A program made the position numbers and the translations under genes. Source: an uncultured Chloroflexia bacterium (GTDB lineage Bacteria; Chloroflexota; Limnocylindria; Limnocylindrales; CSP1-4). Taken from it: DNA of 64,000 nt. Below are positions 18,401 through 55,970 of the stretch, piece by piece. The DNA lies in contig CAVQYA010000001.1 in the NCBI GenBank assembly GCA_963718085.1, positions 708,811-772,810 of the forward strand. The letters are read 5' to 3'. Below the pieces are notes generated by a model. The model searched no databases and was not told where the DNA came from. It was given only the letters and a program-made list of their open reading frames with translations. How positions within the stretch are numbered: position 1 is the stretch's first letter; each line of letters opens with the position of its first letter.

Positions 18401-19729
18401 ATGGACACGCTGACCACCCCCGCCGCCGCCCTGCCGGCCGCCAGGGGGCTGAACCTGGCCGCGCTCGCGGCCGACAACCTGACCCCCGTGCTCGGCCGCT
18501 ACTTCGAGCGCTCGTGGTCCCACGGTGAGGGCCACCGTCTCTACGACACCGACGGCAGGGCCTACCTCGATTTCGCCAATGGGATCGCCGTAAGCGTCCT
18601 GGGTCACCGCAACCCGCGCGTGACGGCGGCCATCCACGCCCAGGTCGACCGCCTGGTCGCACCCATGTCGGCGATGGGCTACGCGGAGTCGACCGTCCGC
18701 CTCGCCCGTGAGCTGGCGGCCGTCCTCCCCGAGCCGATCGACTCGATCTTCTTCATGAACTCCGGCAGCGAGGCAATCGAGGCCGCGATCAAGCTGGCCC
18801 GCCGGGTCACCGGGCGCCCGGGGCTCATCGCCTTCCGCGGTGGGTTCCATGGTCGCACGCTGGGCGCCGCGAGCATCACGAGCTCCAACATCAACTACCG
18901 GAGGGGCTACGAGCCGCTGCTGCCGGGCGTCTACCTGTCCCAGTACCCGTCGGTCTACCGCGACTTCGGCGGGGACGAGGAGCGGGCCGTCGAGGTCGCC
19001 TTCCGCCACCTCCGCGAGCTCCTCCACACGACCATCCCGCCGGAGTCGGTCGCGGCGATCATCCTCGAGCCGGTCCAGGGTGAGGGCGGCTACATCCCGG
19101 CGCCGGCGGCCTTCCTGCAGATCCTTCGCCGCGTCTGCGACAAGCACGGGATCCTGCTCGTCGCCGACGAGGTCCAGGCGGGCTTCGGGCGGACCGGGAA
19201 GATGTGGTCCTTCGAGCACGCCGGGATCGTCCCCGACGTGGTCTGCATGGCCAAGGCGATCGCGAACGGGCTGCCCCTCTCCGCGCTGGCCAGCTCGAAG
19301 GCGCTCCAGGAGAGCTGGGGCAAGGGTGCCCACGGGACCACCTACGGCGGGAATCCCGTCAGTTGCGCGGCCGGCCTGGCCGTCCTCGAGGAGATCCGCG
19401 AACGGGACCTCGTGGCGAACGCGGCCCTGCGGGGAGCGGAGCTCTCGGCGGGCATCCGCGCGATCGCGGCCCGCGACGCCCGCATCGGGGACGTCAGGGG
19501 GCCCGGCCTCATGATCGGCGTGGAGTTCGTGACGGATCGCGCCACCCGGGAGCCCGACGGGCCGACCTGCGAGGCCGTCATCCAGGGCTGCGCCGACGAA
19601 GGGCTGCTGGTCCTGTCCTGCGGCGTCCAGCACAACGTGATCCGCTGGATCGCGCCCCTCGACGTGACGAGCGAGGAGATCGGCGAGGCGCTGGGGATCT
19701 TCGACCGGGTCCTGGCCCGCACGCGCTGA
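18401..19729 (+). CDS. class III (omega/GABA-type) aminotransferase
   Basis: 442 aa from ATG 18401. PLP-lysine motif (CMAKAIANG), LVADEVQAGFGRTG. Confidence 0.85.
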   Translation: MDTLTTPAAALPAARGLNLAALAADNLTPVLGRYFERSWSHGEGHRLYDTDGRAYLDFANGIAVSVLGHRNPRVTAAIHAQVDRLVAPMSAMGYAESTVRLARELAAVLPEPIDSIFFMNSGSEAIEAAIKLARRVTGRPGLIAFRGGFHGRTLGAASITSSNINYRRGYEPLLPGVYLSQYPSVYRDFGGDEERAVEVAFRHLRELLHTTIPPESVAAIILEPVQGEGGYIPAPAAFLQILRRVCDKHGILLVADEVQAGFGRTGKMWSFEHAGIVPDVVCMAKAIANGLPLSALASSKALQESWGKGAHGTTYGGNPVSCAAGLAVLEEIRERDLVANAALRGAELSAGIRAIAARDARIGDVRGPGLMIGVEFVTDRATREPDGPTCEAVIQGCADEGLLVLSCGVQHNVIRWIAPLDVTSEEIGEALGIFDRVLARTR

Positions 19730-19771
19730 GCGCCGGGACGCGCTGAGCGCCGGGACGCGCTGAGCGCCGGG
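19721..19771. repeat. 17-bp tandem repeat x3 (ACGCGCTGAGCGCCGGG), first copy includes the aminotransferase stop codon
   Basis: Read directly from the sequence, between convergent genes. Confidence 0.8.
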
Positions 19772-19776
19772 ACGCC

Positions 19777-22369: not shown

Positions 22370-22595
22370 GCTCCGTCGCGGTGGTCCCCGCCCGGCGGAT
22401 GGTCTCCGTCGCGCCGCTGAGCTCCCGCCGCGGCTCCCATTCCTCTGCCCGCCGCCCCGGCGGCCATTCCCCGCCCGCCCCTGGTTGCCGCCGCGTCGGC
22501 GCCGGACTCCACGGTCCGCCGGACTCCACGGTCCGCCGGTCTCCACGGTGCCGTCGACCCTGCCCGCGACCCGCGGCCTCCGGTACACTCAGCCC

Positions 22596-22980: not shown

Positions 22981-23289
22981 TCAGTGCGACGCCGCGATCG
23001 CCGACCGACGTCTCTCGCGAAGCCCCGGACCGGGCACGCCGGCCGCGCGTTCCTCCTCGATCACGGCCGCGGCCATCGCCGCGAGGCGCGGCGTGCCGAA
23101 CAGGCTGAACCAGATCCCACGTTCCTCGAGATCGGCGCACCCATAGCCGCGGAAGAGGCTCCGGCTCGCGACCGCCCACATCTCGTCGTAGAGCTCCGGC
23201 CAGCCGACGCGGCGTCGGGCCCGGCAGAACCTGACGAACTCCACGGCCTCTGGGTCGGCCGCGTCGAGCGCGTCCGCGCACGGATCCAT
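22981..23289 (-). CDS. hypothetical protein (102 aa from internal Met MDPCADAL)
   Basis: Coding-like C-terminal portion of the 163-aa ORF. Confidence 0.35.
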   Translation of the reverse strand: MDPCADALDAADPEAVEFVRFCRARRRVGWPELYDEMWAVASRSLFRGYGCADLEERGIWFSLFGTPRLAAMAAAVIEEERAAGVPGPGLRERRRSAIAASH

Positions 23290-23653
23290 CGATACCCTCT
23301 CCCTCCCGCGCACGGCGCGGCACGAACCTCGGACGGACCTGGGGGCCTGCGGTCTCCGCGGATTCGGGCGGTCCGACCACAGTGCCGGGGCGCGATCTCG
23401 GTGCCCTGGACTTCCGCCTTCCGCTCTCTCCAGCCTGGGCGACCCCGGAATCCTACGCGGTCCGGGCGGCACCCCGGAAGTGCCTTGTCCACCAACCTTC
23501 CCACCGACTTGTCCACAGGTGCAGGTGCTTGGTGGACGGCACCGGGCAGGTCCGGGAGATCCGTGGAAAGCCGGCGGCCTCTCCCTCTTGACACGCCGCA
23601 GCGGACCCGCGAAATCGGGCCACGGGGCCGCGGCAGACCCGCGGGAAGCGGCC

Positions 23654-28368: not shown

Positions 28369-28545
28369 GCAGCCTCCATGGGCACCGGGGCCGTAGTCCG
28401 GCCGGCCTGCGCCGCGCGATGCGCGGCGGGATGGCGCAGAGTGTACCGCGCCGAGGCCGACGATCCGCCCGCCGGCGAAACTTTCCGGGTGGGTCCGCCG
28501 TCTGGATCGCAGGCCGCCCGCGGGGTGGGTCAAGAGAGGGGTGCC

Positions 28546-31101
28546 GTGCAGCACGCCCGGAAGTCGCGCATCCGGCGTCTCGCCATGCTCGTCGCCGGCG
28601 TCCTCGTCGTGCTGGCCGCCGTCCCGTGGGTCGCCCGGGCGGCGAGCCCGACCCCGGCGACGCCTCCCGGCATGACGATGGAAGCCCGGGCCCTGGTGCA
28701 GGGCCACGCCCGTGCCGGCTCGTGGATGGCGATCCGGGTCGACCTGGCCAACGAGGGCCCGGCGTTCGCGGGCGAGCTGCGCCTCGTCGGCGGCACCCAG
28801 GGTCGAACGCGCTTCGCCGTGCCGGTGGACCTTCCCACGACGTCGCGCAAGGCCTACACGCTCTACGCCCAGGCGCCGGCGTTCGGCAGCTCGCTGGAGA
28901 TCGCCCTCGTGGCCGACGAGACGGTGGTCACCCGCCGGGCCATCGTCTTCGCGCTCCACGATCCCGGCCAGCTCGTGGTCGGCGTGGTCGCGGAGCGGCC
29001 GGGACCTCTCGTGGCCGCGCTGGGGAGGCTGCGCGACCCGGCCGGGCCGCAGCCCGCGGTCGTGCAGCTGACCGTCGCGGACCTGCCGGAGCGCCCCGAA
29101 GCGTGGTCCGCCCTCGATCGCCTCGTCTGGCAGGACGTCGACGCGGGCCGGCTCTCGGTCGAGCAGCTGGCGGCGCTCCGCACGTGGCTCGCCGGCGGCG
29201 GCCGCCTCACGATCGTCGGCGGGAGCGGCGGGCTGGGACTGCTGGCGGGCTTCCCGGACGAGCTGCTTCCCTTCCGGCCCACGGCGACGATCGACGCGGA
29301 TCCCGGGACGATCCGTGGCCTCGTCGGGGGCGTCCTGCCCCGTGGCGCGGAGACGCTGCCCGCCCTCGCCGGATCCCCGGCCACCGGCGCCCGGGCCCTC
29401 GCCGTCAGCGGCGACCGCACGATCGCGGCGGATCGACCATTCGGCAGTGGGGCCGTGACGCTCGCCGGCTTCGACCCGTCGACGCCGTGGCTGGCCGAGA
29501 GCACCTCGGTCGACGTCCTGTGGGCGTCGCTCGTCCCGCCGCGGGGCACGGCGCGCACGCCCCTCATCGTCGGTGACGACTCGCTCCTCGTCTCGCTCCT
29601 CGGCTCGCTGCCGGCGCTGGCGCTCCCGTCGATCGGGGGCCTTCTTCTCCTCCTGTTCGGGTACATCCTCCTCGTCGGCCCCGTGAACTACCTCGTCCTG
29701 CGTCGCCTCGATCGCCGGGAATGGGCGTGGGTCACGATGCCGCTCCTCGTCGTCGGCTTCACGGTGGCCGCTTTCGGCATCGGCTTCGTCCTCCGGGGGA
29801 CCGACGTGATCGTCAACCAGGTGGCGCTCGTGAGAGCCGCCCCGGGAACGGACGCGGCCCAGGCGCAGGTCTACCTCGGGGTCTTCTCGCCGAACCGGGG
29901 CAGCTACGAGGTGGGCGTCCCGGGCGGCGCGCTCCTCTCGGCGCCGTACAGCGGCGAGGGGTTCGACCAGGGCGGCAGCCAGGGCCTGGACGTCGTCCAG
30001 GGCGACCCGGCCCGGCTCCGCCAGCTCGCCGTCGGATACGGGACCCTGCGAGCGGTCCGCGCCGAGGCGCCGGTCCTCGCCCCCCGGATCGAGGCCGACC
30101 TCCGCCTGGAAGGCGATCGAGTCCTCGGGACCATCCGGAACGCGTCCGACCTGCCCCTGGCGAGGCCGGCGGTCGCGCTGGGAACGGCACTCGCCGTGCT
30201 GCCGGACCTCGCACCCGGCGCCACCGCGACGGTCGACCTGCAGGCCCAGCCGGACGCCCTCGGGCGCGCTCTCTCGGAGCGGATCTTCGGCCAGCAGCAG
30301 TTTTCCCCCGACGGGCGCCCTACAGGCGACTTTCTCCGCGACCAGGTCCGGCGCCAGCTGGTCGATGCCCTCACGTACGACCCGTTCTTCGGCTCCAACG
30401 GCACGCTCCCGTCCGACGGGCCGGTCCTCCTCGCCTGGGGCCGGCCGGGGCTCTTCGCGGTGACCGTCGCCGGCCAGGAACCGCGCACGGCAGGCGAGAC
30501 GCTCTACTACCTGCCGCTCGGCCTCACGGCATCGGGGCCCGTGACGTTCGGCCCCGACCTCATGCGGTCGTCCCTGGTCGAGGTCAAGGCGCAGTTCTTC
30601 AACAAGGACCCCTTCAGCCTCACGATCGGCGGCGGGTCCGTGACGCTGGCCTACCGGCCCATCCCGGTCGCGGGCCGTCTCGTCCCGACACGCCTGGCGC
30701 TCGGCGTCAACATGGGGTTCCCGGGGAAGATGATCGATGGCATGCCGAACCCGGGAGGCGGCATGGAGCCGGCGGCCACTCCGCCCAGTGAGCCGGCGGC
30801 CACTCCGGCCCCCTCCGCGGCCTCCGGAGCCTCCGGGACCAGCGCTCCGGCCGGGCCCGTCAATCCCGTGCCCGCGCCGGTCGCCATCGACCCGAACCTG
30901 CCCGGCGTGGAGATCTTCGATCGCGAGGCCGGAGCGTGGCGCGAGGTCCAGGGCCTGGTGTCCGGGAAGGTCCTCGAGATCCGCGAGCCCTGGCGTTTCG
31001 TCGATCCGGCGTCGGGGACGATCCTGGTTCGGCTCACCAACGCTCGCCAGGACGCCGTCAGCCTGCAGCTGGCGGTCCAGCTCGAAGGGACGATGGAGTG
31101 A
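28546..31101 (+). CDS. large secreted/membrane protein, possible GldG-like ABC-transporter auxiliary component; signal peptide, internal TM pair, Pro-rich C-terminus
   Basis: GTG at 28546 preceded by GAGAGGGG. KSRIRRLAMLVAGVLVVLAAVPWVARAAS signal, TM segments near aa 480-540. Stop overlaps the ABC ATPase start. Confidence 0.55.
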   Translation: MQHARKSRIRRLAMLVAGVLVVLAAVPWVARAASPTPATPPGMTMEARALVQGHARAGSWMAIRVDLANEGPAFAGELRLVGGTQGRTRFAVPVDLPTTSRKAYTLYAQAPAFGSSLEIALVADETVVTRRAIVFALHDPGQLVVGVVAERPGPLVAALGRLRDPAGPQPAVVQLTVADLPERPEAWSALDRLVWQDVDAGRLSVEQLAALRTWLAGGGRLTIVGGSGGLGLLAGFPDELLPFRPTATIDADPGTIRGLVGGVLPRGAETLPALAGSPATGARALAVSGDRTIAADRPFGSGAVTLAGFDPSTPWLAESTSVDVLWASLVPPRGTARTPLIVGDDSLLVSLLGSLPALALPSIGGLLLLLFGYILLVGPVNYLVLRRLDRREWAWVTMPLLVVGFTVAAFGIGFVLRGTDVIVNQVALVRAAPGTDAAQAQVYLGVFSPNRGSYEVGVPGGALLSAPYSGEGFDQGGSQGLDVVQGDPARLRQLAVGYGTLRAVRAEAPVLAPRIEADLRLEGDRVLGTIRNASDLPLARPAVALGTALAVLPDLAPGATATVDLQAQPDALGRALSERIFGQQQFSPDGRPTGDFLRDQVRRQLVDALTYDPFFGSNGTLPSDGPVLLAWGRPGLFAVTVAGQEPRTAGETLYYLPLGLTASGPVTFGPDLMRSSLVEVKAQFFNKDPFSLTIGGGSVTLAYRPIPVAGRLVPTRLALGVNMGFPGKMIDGMPNPGGGMEPAATPPSEPAATPAPSAASGASGTSAPAGPVNPVPAPVAIDPNLPGVEIFDREAGAWREVQGLVSGKVLEIREPWRFVDPASGTILVRLTNARQDAVSLQLAVQLEGTME

Positions 31102-32054
31102 CCGCCATCGTGACCGCCCGCGGGCTCGTCAAGCGCTACAACGGCACGGTTGCCCTCGGCGGTCTCGACCTCGAGATCGCGGCCGGGGAGATCTTCGGCC
31201 TCGTCGGGCCGAACGGGGCAGGCAAGACGACGACGCTGCGGATCCTCGCCACGCTCCTCGTCCCGACCGCCGGCGACGCGGAGATCGCGGGGGCCTCCAT
31301 CCGCAGGAACCCGGATGGAGTGCGGCGCGTCGTCGGGTACATGCCGGACAGCTTCGGCGTCTACGACGACATGAAGGTCTGGGAATACCTGGACTTCTTC
31401 GGGCGTTGCCACGGTCTGCCGGCAGACCGCCGGCGGCGGATGATCGGCGACCTCCTGGAGCTCGTGGACCTCGGCCCCAAGCGGGACTCCTACGTGGCAA
31501 CGCTCTCGCGGGGCATGCAGCAACGCCTCTGCCTGGCGCACGCCCTGGTCCACGACCCGGCCGTCCTGGTCCTGGACGAGCCCGCCTCGGGCCTTGACCC
31601 GCGGGCCCGCGTGGAGCTCCGCGAGCTCCTCCGCGAGCTGCGGTCGCTCGGCAAGACGATCCTCATCAGCAGCCACATCCTGCCCGAGCTCGAGGAGCTC
31701 TGCACCAGCCTCGCCATCATCGACCGCGGCCTGCTGCTGGCCCAGGGCAGCCTGGCCGAGATCGAGGCGAGGTTGCGGATCGGCGCCGTCCTGCGGGTGC
31801 GGATCCTGGGTGACGCGGCCGCGGTGACCTTCGCGCGCGATCACCTGGCCGCCGACGCGTCCGTCGCCGTCGCGACCGTGGTGGCCGACGACGTCGTCGA
31901 GATCGGGTACACGGGCGACGACGATTCCGCCGCCCGCCTCCTCGCCGGGGCCGTGGGGGCGGGGATCCGGATCACCTCGTTCGCGAGGGCCGCGAGCGAC
32001 CTCGAGGAGCTCTTCCTGCAGGTGACCGGGAATGCCCGGGCGGAGGTGGCGTGA
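31098..32054 (+). CDS. ABC transporter ATP-binding protein
   Basis: Walker A GPNGAGKTT, signature LSRGMQQRL, Walker B LVLDEPASGLD. GTG start overlapping the upstream stop. Confidence 0.9.
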   Translation: MTAIVTARGLVKRYNGTVALGGLDLEIAAGEIFGLVGPNGAGKTTTLRILATLLVPTAGDAEIAGASIRRNPDGVRRVVGYMPDSFGVYDDMKVWEYLDFFGRCHGLPADRRRRMIGDLLELVDLGPKRDSYVATLSRGMQQRLCLAHALVHDPAVLVLDEPASGLDPRARVELRELLRELRSLGKTILISSHILPELEELCTSLAIIDRGLLLAQGSLAEIEARLRIGAVLRVRILGDAAAVTFARDHLAADASVAVATVVADDVVEIGYTGDDDSAARLLAGAVGAGIRITSFARAASDLEELFLQVTGNARAEVA

Positions 32055-32080
32055 TGCGAGCGCGACTCGCGGTCATCGGG

Positions 32081-32124
32081 ACGGGTATCGCCGCCGTCGG
32101 GCACGGGCATCGCCGCCGTCGGGA
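32081..32124. repeat. 22-bp imperfect tandem duplication (ACGGGTATCGCCGCCGTCGGGC / ACGGGCATCGCCGCCGTCGGGA) in the 5-prime end of the ABC-2 permease gene
   Basis: The peptide GTGIAAVG is encoded twice, 22 nt apart, in two different frames, in the ORF-table translations of 32051.. and 32145... Confidence 0.85.
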
Positions 32125-32144
32125 CCAAGGAGCTCCGGGGTCGG

Positions 32145-33236
32145 ATGCGCGGCCCCCGGTCGTTCGTCGCCCTCACCTTCTACCTCACCCTCCTCGCCGG
32201 GTTCACGGTGATGATCTACCTGCTCCAGGAACAGTCGGCGGCGTCGCAGATGGCGTTCGGCGGCGGCAACCCCTACGTGGCCGGCCAGGTCGGCCAGGCG
32301 GTCTTCACCACCCTCCTCCTCCTCCAGGTCCTGCTCGTGGTCTTCCTCGCTCCCGCGGCGACGACCGGCGCGATAAGCCTGGAGCGCGAGAAGCAGACCC
32401 TCGATCTCCTGACGGCGACCCCGGTCAGCACTCTCGGGATCGTCCTCGGGAAGCTCGCCTCGTCGCTGGCGTTCGTCGTCGTCCTCATCCTCGCCTCGAT
32501 CCCCCTCACCGCCGTCGTCTTCGTGTTCGGCGGCGTGGCCCCGGAGGACATAGTCCGCGGCTACGTGGTGCTCCTCGTGACGGCGGTCGGCTTCGGTTCG
32601 CTCGGGATCTTCTTCTCCAGCATCACCCGGCGAACGCAGTCGGCGACGTTCCTGACCTACCTTGCCGTCCTGGCCCTTACGGTCGGCACCGCCTTCACCT
32701 GGTTCTTCTGGAACCAGATGACCCCCCAGCAGGTCGTGCAGGTCAGTCCGCCCATGGCCCCGGACATGGGCGTCGGCAGCGACGGGGGCGCAGCGCCCAT
32801 CGCCACCGAGCAGCCGCCGGTCGCCAGGCCGCCGGAGGCCCTCCTCTGGCTCAACCCGGTCGTCGCGGCCATCGACGTGGTCTGCGGCATCGACGTGAAC
32901 CCCTATTCCGGGACCTGCCAGATCATCGCGGGCGTCACGGGCAGGCTCCCCGGAAACGTCACGACCCAGCCGGGCTTCGGGCCGGTCCCGGCCAAGCCGG
33001 GCGGCGGCTTCGTCGGGAGCGTGGCCCCGCCCGCCCTCGGAGTGGTCGGCGCCGCCCCGCTCGCCGCCGACGGGGTGTTCGAGGCTGCCTCCACCCGCGA
33101 CTCCTTCTGGCCGCGAACCGCGGCGGCGTGGCTCCTGGCCTCCGTCATCCTCGTCGTGCTGTCGGTCCAGCTGGTCAGCCCGACGCGCCGCTGGCGGCTC
33201 TTCCGCCGACGATCCCGCGGAGAAGTGGTGGCGTGA
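32145..33236 (+). CDS. ABC-2 family transporter permease; native start (GTGATG at 32051, overlapping the ATPase stop) is put out of frame by the 22-bp duplication
   Basis: 6-TM ABC-2 permease. Removing one 22-bp copy gives an in-frame MMRARLAVIGTGIAAVGTKELRGRMRGPRSFVAL N-terminus matching the ABC-2 consensus (KELRxxxRSPRxFV). Confidence 0.8.
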   Translation: MRGPRSFVALTFYLTLLAGFTVMIYLLQEQSAASQMAFGGGNPYVAGQVGQAVFTTLLLLQVLLVVFLAPAATTGAISLEREKQTLDLLTATPVSTLGIVLGKLASSLAFVVVLILASIPLTAVVFVFGGVAPEDIVRGYVVLLVTAVGFGSLGIFFSSITRRTQSATFLTYLAVLALTVGTAFTWFFWNQMTPQQVVQVSPPMAPDMGVGSDGGAAPIATEQPPVARPPEALLWLNPVVAAIDVVCGIDVNPYSGTCQIIAGVTGRLPGNVTTQPGFGPVPAKPGGGFVGSVAPPALGVVGAAPLAADGVFEAASTRDSFWPRTAAAWLLASVILVVLSVQLVSPTRRWRLFRRRSRGEVVA

Positions 33237-33973
33237 AGAGCCAGCTGGCACGAGCTTCGAAGGAGCGCCCTCCCGAGAGGCCGCCGGGTCCGCCGGACCA
33301 TGCTGCCGCCGAAGGCGAGATCCGCGCGATCCGCTCGGGCCTGCGCCGCCAGCGCCGCCGGCTCTGGTTCCGGCGCGCCGTGCGCCGGGCCTGGTGGGCC
33401 CTGGCCGCCGTTCTCGTGGCGGAGGTCGTCCTGCTCGCCGTTGCGCGGCTGGTCCCCCTCGAGGCCGCTCCGGGAATCGCCGTCGCCGTCCCGGCTCTCG
33501 CGCTCCTCGCCCTGCTGGTCGTCGCCGCGCGGGCGCGCCCGTCGCTGGGAGAGACGGCGCTCGCCGTGGACGCGGAGGCCGGCCTGGCGGATCGCCTCGC
33601 AAGCGCGCTCGCCTTCGCCGCCGAGGCGGGTGACGCGGGCGGCATCGACGCGGATGAGGGTGGGCCCGACGCCGCGGCCCGCGCGGGCTTCGTCACCCGG
33701 CAGCGACGCGATGCGCTCGGCGTGCTCGCAATCGTGCCCGCCGACACCTTCCGACCGCGCGTTGCCCGGCGCCCCGCGATGATCGCCGTCCTCGCCGCCG
33801 CGCTCCTCGTCCCTCTCGTCCTGGTCGCCAATCCGATGGACCAGCGGATCGCCCGGGACCGCGCGGTCCGCGAGGAGGCGACCCAGACCGCCGAGCGGAT
33901 CGACCGTCTCGCCGAGCAGCTCGAGCAGCGGGGCCGCAATGCCCAGGATCCGCGAACCCGGCTCGCCGCGTGA
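33233..33973 (+). CDS. hypothetical membrane protein (basic N-terminus, 2-3 TM, C-terminal coiled coil)
   Basis: GTG overlapping the permease stop (GTGA). Same-frame continuation in the ORF table (32051..33973). Confidence 0.5.
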   Translation: MKSQLARASKERPPERPPGPPDHAAAEGEIRAIRSGLRRQRRRLWFRRAVRRAWWALAAVLVAEVVLLAVARLVPLEAAPGIAVAVPALALLALLVVAARARPSLGETALAVDAEAGLADRLASALAFAAEAGDAGGIDADEGGPDAAARAGFVTRQRRDALGVLAIVPADTFRPRVARRPAMIAVLAAALLVPLVLVANPMDQRIARDRAVREEATQTAERIDRLAEQLEQRGRNAQDPRTRLAA

Positions 33974-34409
33974 CCTGCGCGACCTGGCGAAGAGCCTGCG
34001 CGACGACCCGGGGGCGCTTGACAAGAACCTCGCCCGCCTCGGCGGCGTCGAGGCTTCGGTGCGCGAGCAGCTCGACCCTTCGAACGAGGAGCGCGCAGCC
34101 GCGCTCGCGTCGCTCAGCCGCGGGCTCTCGCGCGCAGCCACGGGCGACGCGACGGCCAACCCGGGCGGCAACGCGGAGGAGGCGCAGGCCGACCTGGAAC
34201 GGCTGGCGGACCAGCTCGGCGACAAGACGAGCGACGAGCTGGCCCGACTCGGCCAGTCGCTCGCGGCGCTGCAGGGTGCCGCGTCGCAGGCCGGGTCCGG
34301 CGCCGACGGGGCGCTCCGAGACGCGACGAACGCGCTTGCCCGCGGTGACCGGGCCGCGGCCGCGGACGCGCTGCGCAGGCTCGGAGACTCGTTGAAGGGT
34401 GCCGAGTGA
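33939..34409 (+). CDS. hypothetical acidic coiled-coil protein (156 aa)
   Basis: ATG at 33939, overlaps the previous gene by 35 nt. Stop overlaps the next start (GTGA). Confidence 0.45.
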   Translation: MPRIREPGSPRDLRDLAKSLRDDPGALDKNLARLGGVEASVREQLDPSNEERAAALASLSRGLSRAATGDATANPGGNAEEAQADLERLADQLGDKTSDELARLGQSLAALQGAASQAGSGADGALRDATNALARGDRAAAADALRRLGDSLKGAE

Positions 34410-35128
34410 CCAGGTCGCCACCAACCGCGACCTCGGAGCGGCCGCGTCGCAGGCTCCAGGATGCGCGGCGGCGGCTCGCCGACGCCGGACGCCCCGGAGG
34501 CCAGACGGCCGGCAACCCGGGCCAGCAGGGTCAGCCGGGCAGCTCCGGCAGTCCGGGGCAAGGTCAGGGCCAGCCCGGCAGCTCGGGGAACCCGGGGCAG
34601 GGCCAGGGCCAGCCGGGCGCCTCCGGCAGTCCGGGCCAGGGGCAAGGTCAGGGCCAGGGGCAAGGTCAGGGCCAGGGGCAAGGTCAGGGCCAGGGGCAAG
34701 GTCAGGGCCAGGGGCAAGGTCAGGGCCAGGGGCAAGGGCAGGGCTCCATCGGCGGCGGCGGCTCGAACGCCCGTTACCTGGGGAGCGGCACCGGGTCGGG
34801 GACGGCCCGCGGTCCCGCGAACCCCAACCGGCCGGCCGGCGAGCCCGGCGACCAGAGCTCCGTCTACGCCCCCTTCGATCGCGTCGGCCGCCCGGGCGAC
34901 CCGTCGTACGTGGCCGGGACCGGCGGGGACGGCGGCCAGGTCAAGCCAGGTTCCGGCTCCGGGTCAGGCACGACAAACCCGGCGATCGTCCCCTATTCGG
35001 ACGTCTTCGGCGACTTCTACCGTTACGCCCAGGCAACCCTCGACCGCAGCTACGTGCCGATCGCGGTCAAGGACCTCGTCCGCGACTACTTCAGCGCCCT
35101 CGACCCCACCGGCCAGGAGACGAAGTGA
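34406..35128 (+). CDS. hypothetical protein with long Gly/Gln-rich region including (GQ)16 and conserved-looking C-terminal domain
   Basis: 240 aa. C-terminal IVPYSDVFGDFYRYAQATLDRSYVPIAVKDLVRDYFSALDP is not low-complexity. Stop overlaps the MoxR start. Confidence 0.5.
   Translation: MTRSPPTATSERPRRRLQDARRRLADAGRPGGQTAGNPGQQGQPGSSGSPGQGQGQPGSSGNPGQGQGQPGASGSPGQGQGQGQGQGQGQGQGQGQGQGQGQGQGQGQGQGQGSIGGGGSNARYLGSGTGSGTARGPANPNRPAGEPGDQSSVYAPFDRVGRPGDPSYVAGTGGDGGQVKPGSGSGSGTTNPAIVPYSDVFGDFYRYAQATLDRSYVPIAVKDLVRDYFSALDPTGQETK
34634..34732. repeat. tandem 18-bp nucleotide repeat (GGCCAGGGGCAAGGTCAG)n encoding (GQ)16
   Basis: Read directly from the sequence. Confidence 0.85.
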
Positions 35129-50720: not shown

Positions 50721-52887
50721 ATGATCGCCGCCCGGAGCCACGGAGCCCGTCGCCTGCGCGTGGTCGCCGCGACGCTCGCCGTCCTCGCCCTGGCCCTCCT
50801 GCCGGCACGTCTCGCCGCGCCGGACCGCGTGGCAGCCGCCGGGCCAGTCAACCTCCGGGGCCAGCTGACCGACGACGTCGGCGCCCTCTCCGCTTCGGGC
50901 AAGAGCACGGTGACCGCCGCCCTCGCGACGCTTCTCGACCGATCCGGGGTCCAGCTCTGGGTCTGGTTCACCGACACCACCGGGGGGATGACCGCGCCGG
51001 ACTTCGCGGCCGCGACGGCGGAGAAGAGCTCGTTTGGCGGCACCGACCTCCTGCTCGTGCTGGCGATGACCGACCGCTCCTACGGCTACTCGCGCCCCGA
51101 CGGCTTCGCCCTCTCCGATGCGGAACTGGAGCAGCTCCTGTCCAACGAGATGGAGCCGGGCCTCCGGGCCGGCGACAACGCGGGCGCGATCGTGACGCTG
51201 GCGCAGTCCCTCGGCGACGCCCTCTCCGGCCCGGCACCCACCGGGGCGCCGGCACCCACCGCGGCCCCCGTCGCAACCGCGGTTCCCCTGCCCGGCGAGC
51301 CGCCAAGCCAGGGCAGCGGCGGGTCCGGCCTCGGCACCGGGCTCATGGTCGTCGTCGTCGTGGTGGTCGCCGCGCTCGTCGAGCTGGTTCTTCCTGGTCC
51401 GGCGCCGCTACGGCGGGGCCGTCGGCATCCCCGACGGCAGGCAGGGATCGACGGGCGCGCCCGTCGATCCGCTGGCCGCGATGAGCGACAAGGACCTGAA
51501 CGCCGAGGCAAACCGCCAGCTCCTCGCCACCGACGACGCCGTCCGGGACAGCGAGCAGGAGCTCGGGTTCGCCGAGGCCCAGTTCGGCGAGACCGAGGCG
51601 GCGACCTTCCGCGAGGCGATCGCCGCAGCGAAGGAGGACCTGCGGGCCGCCTTCGCGGTCCGCCAGCAGCTCGACGACGCGACGCCCGAGGACCGGCCCA
51701 CCCGGCGGCGGATGCTCACCGACCTGGTGGGCCGCTGCCGGAAGGCCCAGGCGCGCCTCGACGCCGAGACGGAGCGCTTCGAGGCGCTGCGGGCCTTCGA
51801 GCGCGAGGCGCCCGGTGTCCTCGCCGCGCTTCCCGCGACGATCGACGCCGTCGAGGCCCGCATCTCGACGGTCGAGACCACGATGACCCACCTGGAGGAG
51901 TACGCCGACGCCTCCTGGCAGGCCGTCGCCGACCAATCTCGACGAGGCGCGCGCCCGGATCGCGGCGGCCCGCGCCGCGGTGACCCAGGGGGAGGCGGCC
52001 ACCGCAGCTTCGGACGGGCCGAAGACCGCCGCGGCTACCCGCGTCGGACAGGAGGCCGTCGCCCAGGCCGGGGCGTTCCTCGACGCCATCGAGCACCTTT
52101 CCGCCGAGCTCGACCAGGCCCACGACCGGGTGACCACGGAGATCGCCGACGCCGAGGCGGACGTCGCCCGGGCCCGGGGAGCGTCCGGGACGGCTCCCGC
52201 CGACCCGGAGATACCGGCCCGGCTCACGGAGGCGGAGGCGCTCCTGGCCGACGCCCGGCGCGACATCGGCCACCCCAAGCCGGACGTCGCGGCAGCCTAC
52301 GAGAAGGCCCGCCGGGCGAACGAGATCGCCGACGGCGTGCTGGCCGGGATCCGGACCGCCGCCGAGCAGCGCGCCGCGCTGGCGTCACGGCTGGAGACCT
52401 CGATCCGGGGAGCGCAGGCGACCGTGACCCGCGCCACCGACTACGTGACCAACCACCGCGGCGGTGTCGGGGGCGAGGCCCGCACTCGCGTCGCCGAGGC
52501 GGCGCGCCACCTGGACGCGGCGGTCGCGTCGGGCGCGGCCGACCCGGCGGCCGGGATAGCCGAGGCGGAGACGGCGGCCCGCCTCGCCAACGAGGCGCTC
52601 GCCCTGGCCCAGCGCGACTACGGCGGCTGGGACGACCCGTGGCGCGGCGGTCGGGCGTGGCCCGGGCGGCGGAGGCAGCCCCGGTGGCGGAGGCGGCGAG
52701 GTCGCCGCCCGTCATCGGCGGCCTGATCGGGGCGATGCTGAGCGGCGGAGGTCGCGGCGGGGGCGGCGGCGGGCACGGCTCCGGCGGTCGCGGTGGCTGG
52801 GGTGGTGGCGGCGGGCGCAGCTCCGGGGGCGGCGGCTTCGGCGGGGGCGGAGGCGGCGGGCGCAGCTCCGGGGGCGGCCGCTGGTGA
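50721..52887 (+). CDS. TPM-domain (TLP18.3/Psb32/MOLO-1) membrane protein with long coiled-coil region and Gly-rich C-terminal tail; reading frame interrupted about three times
   Basis: Signal peptide + TPM domain + TM in frame 0. The post-TM segment FFLVRRRY... and coiled coil are in frame +1 (ORF 51481..). The coiled coil continues in frame +2 (ORF 51980..). The Gly-rich terminus GGGGFGGGGGGGRSSGGGRW ends at 52887. Each frame degenerates to Arg-rich junk after its junction. Confidence 0.55.
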
Positions 52888-55064: not shown

Positions 55065-55970
55065 TCACCTATGCCGGCGGGGCGGTCCCCGCCCGCCGGC
55101 AATCCCGGCGCCTGTGTGCAGCCTACGACGAACGGATCGTCGCTGCCGTGACCTTTCGACTTGCCGACCTCCCGCCGCGCAGGCGGCTCCGTGACGATCA
55201 CTCAGCCGTCCACGCCGAGAAGGCGTGGCAGCGTCGTTCCCGCCGGCCCCGCGACGACAGTGGTCGAACGCGCCCGCGTTGTCGGCGCGATCGAGGTTCG
55301 CCAGCCATGTGCTCGCCCCGCGGAGCCGGGCAATCTGCACGTACCCGGCGGCGGGGTAGACGTTTCCCGACGTCCCGACGGCGAGGAAGACCAGTGGGGC
55401 GCCGGCGGCCGCGCGCATGAAGCGGTCGACCTCGTGCGTGGTGGCCGGGTCCAGCATCTCGCCGAACCAGACGATGTCAGGGCGCAGGAGCGAGCCGCAC
55501 GCGCAGCGCGGGAGGGGCGGCCCCACGGGGAAGGCCGCGTCGGCGACCGGCGGGCGCAGGCAGCGGCTGCATTTGGTACGCCACAGGGTCCCGTGCAGCT
55601 CCACCACCCGCCGGCTGCCGGCCCGGGCGTGCAGCCCGTCGACGTTCTGGGTCGCCAGGAGGAAGCGGTCGCCGAGCCGCGCCTCGAGGGTCGCCAGCGC
55701 CCGGTGGGCGTCGTTCGGCTCGGCCGCGGCCGCGTCCCGGCGCCGCATCGAGTAGAAGCGCCAGACCAGCTCCGGGTTGGCATCGAACCCTTCCGGCGAG
55801 GCCACCTGCTCGACGGGGTGGCCGTCCCACAGGCCGCCGGCGCCGCGGAACGTGGCCAGGCCGCTCTCCGCGGAGATCCCCGCGCCGGTGAGGACCAGGA
55901 CGCGGGTGCGCTCGTCGATGGGGATCCGGGCGTCCGGCACGGGGATCCGGGCGTCCGGCACCTCGCTCAC
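55065..55970 (-). CDS. cobB: NAD-dependent protein deacylase (Sir2/CobB family); Arg-rich C-terminal ~55 aa look non-native
   Basis: GAGISAESG, Zn ribbon CSRC...CACG, catalytic His region. N-terminal in-frame 21-bp tandem duplication (PDARIPV/PDARIPI). Confidence 0.75.
   Translation of the reverse strand: MSEVPDARIPVPDARIPIDERTRVLVLTGAGISAESGLATFRGAGGLWDGHPVEQVASPEGFDANPELVWRFYSMRRRDAAAAEPNDAHRALATLEARLGDRFLLATQNVDGLHARAGSRRVVELHGTLWRTKCSRCLRPPVADAAFPVGPPLPRCACGSLLRPDIVWFGEMLDPATTHEVDRFMRAAAGAPLVFLAVGTSGNVYPAAGYVQIARLRGASTWLANLDRADNAGAFDHCRRGAGGNDAATPSRRGRLSDRHGAACAAGGRQVERSRQRRSVRRRLHTGAGIAGGRGPPRRHR
55921..55962. repeat. 21-bp tandem duplication x2 (GGGATCCGGGCGTCCGGCAC) within the 5-prime end of cobB, in frame
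   Basis: Read directly from the sequence. Confidence 0.8.

Follow-up and report, generated by a model that had tools for sequence, protein, structure and literature searches.

ABC-2 type exporter permeases (PF12679; annotated 'multi-copper enzyme maturation permease'; distantly GldF-like) are encoded directly downstream of an ABC ATPase, with overlapping stop and start codons, and have a KELRG motif before the first transmembrane helix, TM1. Three phenomena could bear on the reading frame of such a gene. Slipped-strand events change the copy number of tandem repeats, among them repeats in poorly constrained tails. In prfB-type programmed frameshifting, a +1 change at a slippery site with an in-frame stop is required for the full protein. 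Long-read (metagenome) assemblies contain indel errors that fragment genes (PMC12007338, PMC9262707), and polishing against such errors has been described (PMC12313526). Here, we analysed a 64,000-nucleotide stretch of DNA from an uncultured Chloroflexia bacterium, hereafter referred to as the window, in which the gene of an ABC-2 permease has two tandem copies of a short sequence near its 5' end and is out of frame as assembled. Comparison with relatives shows the apparent 22-bp frameshifting duplication in this gene to be a genuine, harmless in-frame 21-nt repeat with one extra base, which is most likely an error of the consensus sequence.

The permease gene has the layout of the described systems. 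It adjoins an ABC_tran ATPase gene, with which it overlaps at 32054, and the same partner ATPase is found at this place in relatives L001-L004. The start of the ATPase gene agrees with the orthologue in L003, which is called at 318 aa, and with a frame switch at 31099. Both GTG 32051 and ATG 32054 overlap the ATPase stop, and the GTGATG junction is conserved in all relatives compared. The KELRG motif is present before TM1. The permease matches Pfam PF12679 (ABC2_membrane_2) with 49.2 bits against a cut-off of 27.2, over residues 18-205 of the single-copy repaired protein, and this match starts 7 residues upstream of ATG 32145. PF01061 passes too (29.7 against 26.9). The GldF equivalog TIGR03518 was rejected, with 40.5 bits against a cut-off of 288.5; in scoring so far below the equivalog level the permease differs from GldF-like permeases. 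No solved structure related to the permease was detectable by sequence search. The gene sits in a MoxR-DUF58-BatA/VWA gene cluster.

Table 1 Features of the permease locus and of the other genes with one-base lesions in the window.
Feature	Coordinates	Strand	Evidence
ABC transporter ATP-binding subunit, 318 codons from GTG 31098, stop TGA 32052-32054	31098..32054	+	Pfam ABC_tran 2.1e-27; NCBIfam DrrA and GldA-like subfamily matches
Native ATG of the permease, its A shared with the ATPase stop (GTGATG); translational-coupling junction	32054..32056	+	Same junction and start (MRAR...) in L001-L004, L013, L014 and L017
Repeat copy 1, 21 nt, ACGGGTATCGCCGCCGTCGGG, encodes TGIAAVG	32081..32101	+	Aligns with copy 1 of the in-frame double repeat in L001, L002, L003, L013 and L014
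Extra nucleotide C; period 21 becomes 22, frame shifts by +1	32102..32102	+	Sole non-3n indel in the permease gene against L001, L002, L003, L013 and L014
Repeat copy 2, 21 nt, ACGGGCATCGCCGCCGTCGGG, encodes TGIAAVG in the frame of the remaining permease	32103..32123	+	Sequence and relatives
AAGGAG, Shine-Dalgarno-like hexamer 12 nt upstream of ATG 32145	32127..32132	+	Read from sequence
Permease as callable from the assembly, 363 aa (P0001, 100% identical)	32145..33236	+	ORF list
Gene after the permease, TM + coiled-coil + Q/G-repeat protein; insertions at 33968, 34407 and 34452	33233..35128	+	Comparison with L003, L004 and L013
TPM-domain (YgcG-like) membrane protein gene; four +1-equivalent shifts at 51382, ~51931, ~52654 and ~52709	50721..52887	+	Alignment to L015
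SIR2-family gene; one-base insertion at 55259, last ~17 codons moved to another frame	55205..55970	-	L016 alignment and three-frame translation against the C-terminus of the L016 protein

A preliminary description of this DNA reported two near-identical tandem copies at 32081-32124 that encode GTGIAAVG in two frames, and the sequence bears this out. Segments 32081-32102 and 32103-32124 read ACGGGTATCGCCGCCGTCGGGC and ACGGGCATCGCCGCCGTCGGGA, respectively, and are identical at 20 of 22 positions. Tandem Repeats Finder delimits 32076-32125, with a period of 22, 2.3 copies, 90% matches and a score of 84. For periods of 15-30 and no more than two mismatches, the window has 16 tandem pairs, whereas first-order Markov simulations yield 0.55 on average and never more than 3, and the permease pair is the only one of the 16 with a period above 21. 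When the relatives guide the parsing, the segment consists of two 21-nt units, identical at 20 of 21 positions, with a single base between them. The placement of this base is ambiguous within 32098-32102 (GTCGGG[C]ACGGGC). Across the junction, the window form with the extra base reads GTCGGGCACGGGC, and the form with 21-nt spacing and no extra base reads GTCGGGACGGGC.

As assembled, the frame of ATG 32054 reads MRARLAVIGTGIAAVGHGHRRRR... and stays open for 1.9 kb, to 33973. The frame of ATG 32145 reads ...SGTGIAAVGTKELRGRMRGPRSF upstream, and contains no ATG, GTG or TTG between the ATPase TGA and 32145. That the permease frame is broken in the assembly had been stated before and is confirmed by the source record, whose call, P0001, starts at ATG 32145. 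Missing from this product are residues 1-31 of the double-copy N-terminus, with the conserved AVGTKELRGR among them. The AAGGAG upstream of ATG 32145 encodes the conserved K-E in KELRG, and its likeness to a Shine-Dalgarno sequence is fortuitous; any part that it might play in re-initiation would be conjectural.

In the relatives with two copies, the repeat is in frame as a 21-nt, 7-codon unit: MRARLAVIGTGIAAVGTGIAAVGTKELRG. Among the 24 closest homologues, the N-terminus is double in 12 and single in the other 12, and all more distant homologues are single-copy. Comparison of DNA confirms the double copy in L001, L002, L003, L013 and L014 and the single copy in L004 and L017. The two closest proteins, P0002 (95% identity) and P0003 (91%), are both double-copy, and their loci are 96.6% and 92.4% identical to the window in DNA, the former value being that of L001. 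Against every one of the five double-copy loci, the permease gene of the window shows one difference that is not a multiple of three, a 1-nt insertion, while against the single-copy L004 the difference is a 22-nt insertion. The claim that a 22-bp duplication shifts the frame therefore fails, because the orthologues (P0002, P0003, L003, L013, L014) have the duplication in frame as 21 nt (7 aa) and the lesion is 1 nt long. An in-frame duplication in orthologous permease genes is what the preliminary description had named as contradicting it, and the alignment revealed just that. Its proposal that deleting one copy gives the native N-terminus holds in part: removal of 22 nt from the window does restore a single ORF with a start that overlaps the ATPase stop, but the native form is double-copy. 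The native N-terminus of this lineage, as judged from its relatives, is MRARLAVIGTGIAAVGTGIAAVGTKELRG..., not the single-copy form. The earlier view that the duplication is no assembler artefact was upheld, since independent assemblies from JGI, ENA, Logan and NCBI have it too, and the copies in them have diverged.

In 119 of 120 homologues, the gene either reads through in frame or owes its shortness only to a contig end or to the start that was chosen. Those called from 'MRGPRA...' were considered as independent frameshifts and ruled out, being the result of start choice (L017) or of contig edges. Other short gene calls (P0050, P0069, P0072) likewise come from start choice or contig ends and not from frameshifts. 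A scan of metagenome contigs for perfect matches to the junction, in the form that has the extra base and in the form that lacks it, gave none, but it missed the known L001 variant too, so that this result carries no weight; a looser junction pattern retrieved L013 and L014. Among the matches listed, genomes of related species are MFD metagenome-assembled genomes, which are distant (44-82% identity).

The extra base in the permease gene is one of many. The gene after the permease, for whose product no Pfam match was found, is a single ORF in relatives, and tblastn of the L003 and L004 products hits frames 2, 3, 1 and 2 in turn; without its three inserted bases, it reads as one uninterrupted ORF of 630 codons. 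The TPM gene encodes one protein of ~700 aa in relatives, and homologues cover 96% of the conceptually joined protein. With P0121 as query, tblastn hits frames 3, 1 and 2, and the C-terminal tail lies in two more frames. The first two of its shifts are one-base insertions, the other two are further +1-equivalent indels in the gene tail, and the source record call, P0219, is truncated at 420 aa. These two genes and the SIR2-family gene are intact in all relatives examined. In total, there are seven single-base coding insertions in four genes, in addition to the two +1-equivalent indels in the TPM tail. Over all alignments to relatives, the window has 19 unique 1-nt insertions and 4 1-nt deletions, and the single-base frameshifts in coding sequence are insertions without exception. 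An HMM on codon-position GC flagged the TPM gene, while a first list made from ORFs and GC3 was too noisy, and GC3 sliding windows were too coarse to resolve the 48-nt out-of-frame stretch. Two further candidates were rejected: a -1 shift near 28470, at the 5' end of a 907-aa gene, is probably upstream of the true start, and the junction 39151 is a normal gene boundary, where ATG 39260 overlaps the stop.

These data are best explained by a permease gene that carries a genuine in-frame 21-nt tandem duplication encoding TGIAAVG, located in a short cytoplasmic tail that precedes TM1 and the conserved KELRGRMRG motif. In the assembly, a single extra base between the copies causes the period to seem to be 22 and disrupts the frame. 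This base, which could be of the kind left behind in long-read metagenome assemblies, is quite probably an insertion-type consensus-sequence error and not a mutation in the organism, a technical origin that we infer from the comparisons above. The real gene would then start at ATG 32054, coupled translationally to the ATPase stop, and encode an intact permease of 393 aa that spans the junction as the peptide GTGIAAVGTGIAAVGTKELR. Most probably, this is a normal ABC-2 permease gene with coupling to the ATPase gene. An error is favoured over biology because the base is one of many one-base insertions that break other genes in the window: no relative has the frameshift, and errors of this type recur in unrelated genes of the contig. 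As in described long-read assemblies, conserved genes are split by one-base indels at several sites of the contig, the fragments remain highly similar to intact orthologues, and gene callers give truncated products, namely P0001 (363 aa) and P0219 (420 aa). The source contig, available from ENA and NCBI, has 2.05 Mb (2,046,574 bp), and the sequence is tentatively attributed to a long-read metagenome-assembled genome on the basis of this size and of the relatives. However, the lesions differ from classic long-read errors, which affect homopolymer length and are often deletions, in that nearly all are insertions, mostly outside homopolymers, which is not the classic Nanopore signature. They also differ in their concentration in a small set of fast-evolving genes. 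Errors that arise uniformly would not gather in 4 genes and leave ~25 others intact among the ~30 checked, so that an error would have to be due to local conditions, for example low coverage or a mixture of strains where genes evolve fast.

The same clustering could be read in favour of biology. The insertion may be a real and very recent mutation in the population, with the transporter operon and a few envelope genes at an early stage of decay, but this reading, the main rival, is unlikely. Ribosomes coupled to the ATPase stop would initiate at ATG 32054 and translate the wrong frame, and any 363-aa permease would have to come from independent initiation at ATG 32145, aided by AAGGAG. The assembled sequence does read this way. 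Moreover, three of the four affected genes encode fast-evolving membrane or envelope proteins, a gene-specific pattern that could mean gene-specific loss of constraint, and the inserted bases mostly extend no homopolymer. On the other hand, bacterial mutation spectra favour deletions, and the insertions are in large excess here. There are 3-4 lesions per gene without a stop-codon substitution, a deletion or a raised dN/dS (0.10-0.14), and a conserved SIR2 deacetylase is also affected. In a free-living population whose genome is small, a consensus with 4 of ~30 checked genes broken is implausible. With the extra base removed, the dN/dS of the permease between the window and L001 is 0.14, which is not above the 0.21-0.26 of relative-to-relative pairs; relaxed selection on a pseudogene would raise it. 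For the segment 33969-34406, which is otherwise out of frame, removal of the extra bases gives a dN/dS of 0.10-0.11, against 0.08 between intact relatives. The corrected frames have a GC3 near 0.95. The corrected genes show no sign of decay and have retained purifying selection. It is more doubtful still that the one-base insertions are real and that the lineage has undergone a recent burst of +1 frameshifts, concentrated in genes linked to the envelope (those of the ABC-2 permease, the adjacent protein and the TPM protein). These genes would either be on their way out of a genome under streamlining or continue to be expressed, by means of efficient +1 recoding or re-initiation.

A de novo 22-bp tandem duplication that broke the frame of a single-copy ancestor, with the two mismatches arising later, is very improbable. 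It would account for the 22-nt difference from L004 and for the single-copy N-terminus left when 22 nt are deleted, but the closest orthologues and the clade of the window already have two copies, 21 nt apart and in frame. From a double-copy relative one 1-nt event suffices, while from a single-copy ancestor a 22-nt duplication is needed together with substitutions that mimic copy 1 of the relatives. A programmed +1 ribosomal frameshift, or a phase-variable switch that tunes the amount of permease, has the least to recommend it and hardly deserves credence. As in prfB, the window as assembled requires a +1 change for the full protein, the shift at 32102 lies within a repeat, and two insertion sites place a weak-context TGA-C stop at the shift point (GCG-TGA-C at 33971 and GAG-TGA-C at 34407), which is superficially prfB-like; these stops were judged coincidental. 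However, the shift is found in no orthologue, 32102 lacks a slippery codon with a stop after it, the zero frame being open for 1.9 kb, and a by-eye search of the insertion sites found no shared slippery site, methylation-like motif or homopolymer. A change in copy number cannot switch the frame, because the repeat unit is 21 nt long.

The preferred reading, an in-frame repeat with an adjacent consensus error, carries a caution: an apparent frameshifting duplication may be a harmless in-frame repeat next to a single-base error. Since one-base insertions fragment several genes of the source assembly, its apparent pseudogenes and truncated starts should not be taken as biology without read support.

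The copy number of the repeat stands on firmer ground than a real frameshift. The unit is a multiple of three, and its number varies among close relatives from independent sources, as in an in-frame length polymorphism. The repeat is old, and about half of the close relatives have it too. Within the clade there are one or two copies, a variation that slipped-strand events adding or removing a 3n unit would be expected to produce. In a rough NJ tree, the permease of the window clusters with the double-copy proteins P0002 and P0003, and single- and double-copy forms are intermixed; within this single clade, gains or losses of the 7-residue repeat seem to have occurred on several occasions. The genuine biology is minor: the cytoplasmic tail before KELRG tolerates one or two copies of the 7-residue unit, whose number changed repeatedly among close relatives. 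The 21-nt unit, the slightly diverged copies and the position in a poorly constrained tail resemble described slipped-strand polymorphisms, from which the clade of the window differs in having just one or two copies and no long array.

The gene upstream of the permease encodes an ABC ATPase, whose stop codon is overlapped by two start codons. Two 22-nt units, 32081-32102 and 32103-32124, adjoin near the start of the permease gene and are identical at 20 of 22 positions; Tandem Repeats Finder gives them a score of 84, a period of 22 and 2.3 copies. The frame that opens at the stop-start overlap reads MRARLAVIGTGIAAVG, then HGHRRRR..., and the frame of ATG 32145, the permease start as assembled, reads ...SGTGIAAVGTKELRGRMRGPRSF. 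Hence two different frames each encode GTGIAAVG, as the preliminary description had noted. From the TGA to 32145, the second frame contains no canonical start. The window has 16 tandem pairs of such quality, far more than expected by chance (Markov simulations average 0.55), and this repeat is the only one of the 16 with a period above 21. The wrong-frame ORF 32051-33973 has 640 codons without a stop and runs into the frame of the first segment of the next gene; it is a by-product of 73% G+C (73.5% over the window) and no evidence of a gene.

A protein search with the permease retrieved 2,386 homologues, of which the best 120 were compared at their N-termini. Nearly all of these 120 share the pattern MRxR...G(I/V)xAVGxKELRGRMRG. 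The seven residues of the TGIAAVG type are doubled in frame in 12 of the 24 closest homologues (77-95% identity), as in GTGIAAVGTGIAAVGTKELRG or in diverged variants such as GTGVAAVGAGVAAVA, and are single in the other 12 and in every more distant homologue among the best 120. The two closest proteins, P0002 (95% identity) and P0003 (91%), both have two copies, and the window clusters with them in a rough neighbor-joining tree. One-copy and two-copy forms are intermixed in this tree, which has no support values, across P0002-P0025 (77-95% identity); sequence comparison suggests that the 21-nt (3n) unit was gained or lost repeatedly in the clade.

The DNA loci of relatives come from independent assemblies (L001, L002, L013 and L014 from JGI, L003 from ENA and L004 from Logan). 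All of them have the GTGATG stop-start overlap, and in the double-copy loci the repeat is 21 nt long and in frame. In pairwise alignments, the sole indel of the permease gene that is not a multiple of three is one extra base of the window at 32098-32102, seen against L001 (96.6% identity), L002 (92.4%), L003, L013 and L014, while a 22-nt difference is found only against the single-copy L004. Since the relatives carry a 21-nt repeat in frame and the window differs by one base, the correct parse, judged from these alignments, is two 21-nt units, 32081-32101 and 32103-32123 (20 of 21 identical), and one inserted base. The doubling reported in the preliminary description is thus upheld and its interpretation holds in part, but a 22-bp duplication that shifts the frame is not a real feature, as the orthologues have the duplication in frame.

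The best-supported explanation is an in-frame, genuine seven-codon repeat of variable copy number, which would lie in the cytoplasmic tail of a permease of the ordinary ABC-2 type, together with a base between the copies that would be an insertion error of the consensus sequence. The repaired permease matches Pfam ABC2_membrane_2 with 49.2 bits (cut-off 27.2), and the match begins at TKELRG, 7 residues upstream of ATG 32145. GldF is only distantly related, and no solved structure was detectable by sequence. The transporter lies within a conserved gene cluster.

Features of the window around the permease, in genes with shifted frames and at non-coding indels
Feature	Position	Strand	Details
ABC ATPase stop	32052-32054		TGA; overlapped by GTG 32051 and ATG 32054
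Gene after permease	33233-35128		One-base insertions 33968, 34407, 34452 (alignments with L003, L004, L013)
TPM-domain (YgcG-like) gene	50721-52887		Four +1-equivalent shifts
SIR2-family gene	55205-55970	-	One-base insertion at 55259
One-base indels at non-coding sites	23305, 23341, 23429, 25872, 26000, 26017, 26113, 50691, 55974, 60505, 60693
Conserved cluster	28378-42160		Gene order: 907-aa membrane protein (weak DUF7408 match), ATPase, permease, 630-codon TM/coiled-coil/Q/G-repeat gene, MoxR AAA+, DUF58, BatA/VWA protein, VWA/GATase1-like protein (last)

Three other genes are broken. In L003 and L004 the permease is followed by one ORF of at least 464 codons; in the window the product of these relatives maps to frames 2, 3, 1 and 2, owing to the three insertions in this gene, and deletion of these bases gives a clean 630-codon ORF. 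Two of the insertions produce a TGA-C stop right at the shift point. A Gln/Gly-rich repeat array of this gene (34526-34744; 6.4 copies of the 18-nt unit GTCAGGGCCAGGGGCAAG, nested in a 39-nt higher-order repeat) varies in length among relatives by 3n indels. In the TPM gene, 51389 and 51936 stood out in an HMM of codon-position GC, tblastn with the homologue P0121 found frames 3, 1 and 2, and the Gly-rich tail requires two further +1 shifts. In alignment to the relative's locus L015, the lesions lie at 51382 (+1), 51929-51934 (+1), 52654 (+10) and 52709 (-2). The joined conceptual protein is 96% covered by homologues of about 700 aa, which are single proteins in relatives; the source record's call, P0219, ends early at 420 aa. 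In the SIR2 gene, the insertion shifts the last ~17 codons (VVAGPAGTTLPRLLGVDG*) to another frame.

Alignments of 21000-61000 to L013-L016 gave 19 insertions and 4 deletions of one nucleotide unique to the window, and the single-base frameshifts in coding sequence are all insertions. Some 25 further genes for which relatives offered a comparison are each in a single frame. Other short homologue calls were rejected as frameshifts, being start-choice or contig-edge effects. The genomes of related species that were found are 'MFD' metagenome-assembled genomes, which were built exclusively from Nanopore reads with a single Medaka round (PMC12313526), and indels that fragment genes are a known trait of such long-read assemblies (PMC12007338, PMC9262707). 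The window lies on a 2.05 Mb contig present in ENA and NCBI and, by analogy, may share an MFD-like assembly background. One-base insertions are abundant in this assembly, so read-level support is needed before any of its genes is taken for a pseudogene.

The main rival, a real and very recent frameshift, is unlikely. Ribosomes coupled to the ATPase would follow the wrong frame, which stays open as far as 33973. If a permease were made, it would start at ATG 32145, which has a fortuitous AAGGAG 12 nt upstream, and would lack the conserved AVGTKELRGR. The concentration of lesions in four genes and the position of most inserted bases outside homopolymers count as weak points of a consensus error. 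After removal of the extra bases, dN/dS of the permease is 0.14 between the window and L001 and 0.21-0.26 between relatives; for segment 33969-34406, which a real shift would put out of frame, it is 0.10-0.11, and 0.08 among intact relatives. Neither shows a sign of relaxed constraint on the window's lineage. A de novo 22-bp duplication, programmed frameshifting and phase variation are all very unlikely, because the orthologues are in frame, 32102 has no slippery-stop site and a 21-nt unit is unable to switch frame.

The weakly coding-like ORF 23005-23613 (-), 67% identical to L014, has its three one-base insertions (23305, 23341 and 23429) within 125 nt, and could either be non-coding or count as a fifth affected gene. 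Two tandem arrays with a 17-nt unit and about 3 copies each, 19721-19775 (100% matches) and 22500-22549 (96%), fall in stretches called non-coding by the frame model, the latter within a 170-nt segment missing in L014. The HhH-GPD glycosylase gene of L015 and L016 is absent from the window, as a 743-nt alignment gap (window 54693 against L015 14178-14693). The SIR2 gene has a further in-frame seven-codon duplication close to its 5' end, a perfect tandem pair of the 21-nt unit GGGGATCCGGGCGTCCGGCAC (55920-55961) that L016 lacks.
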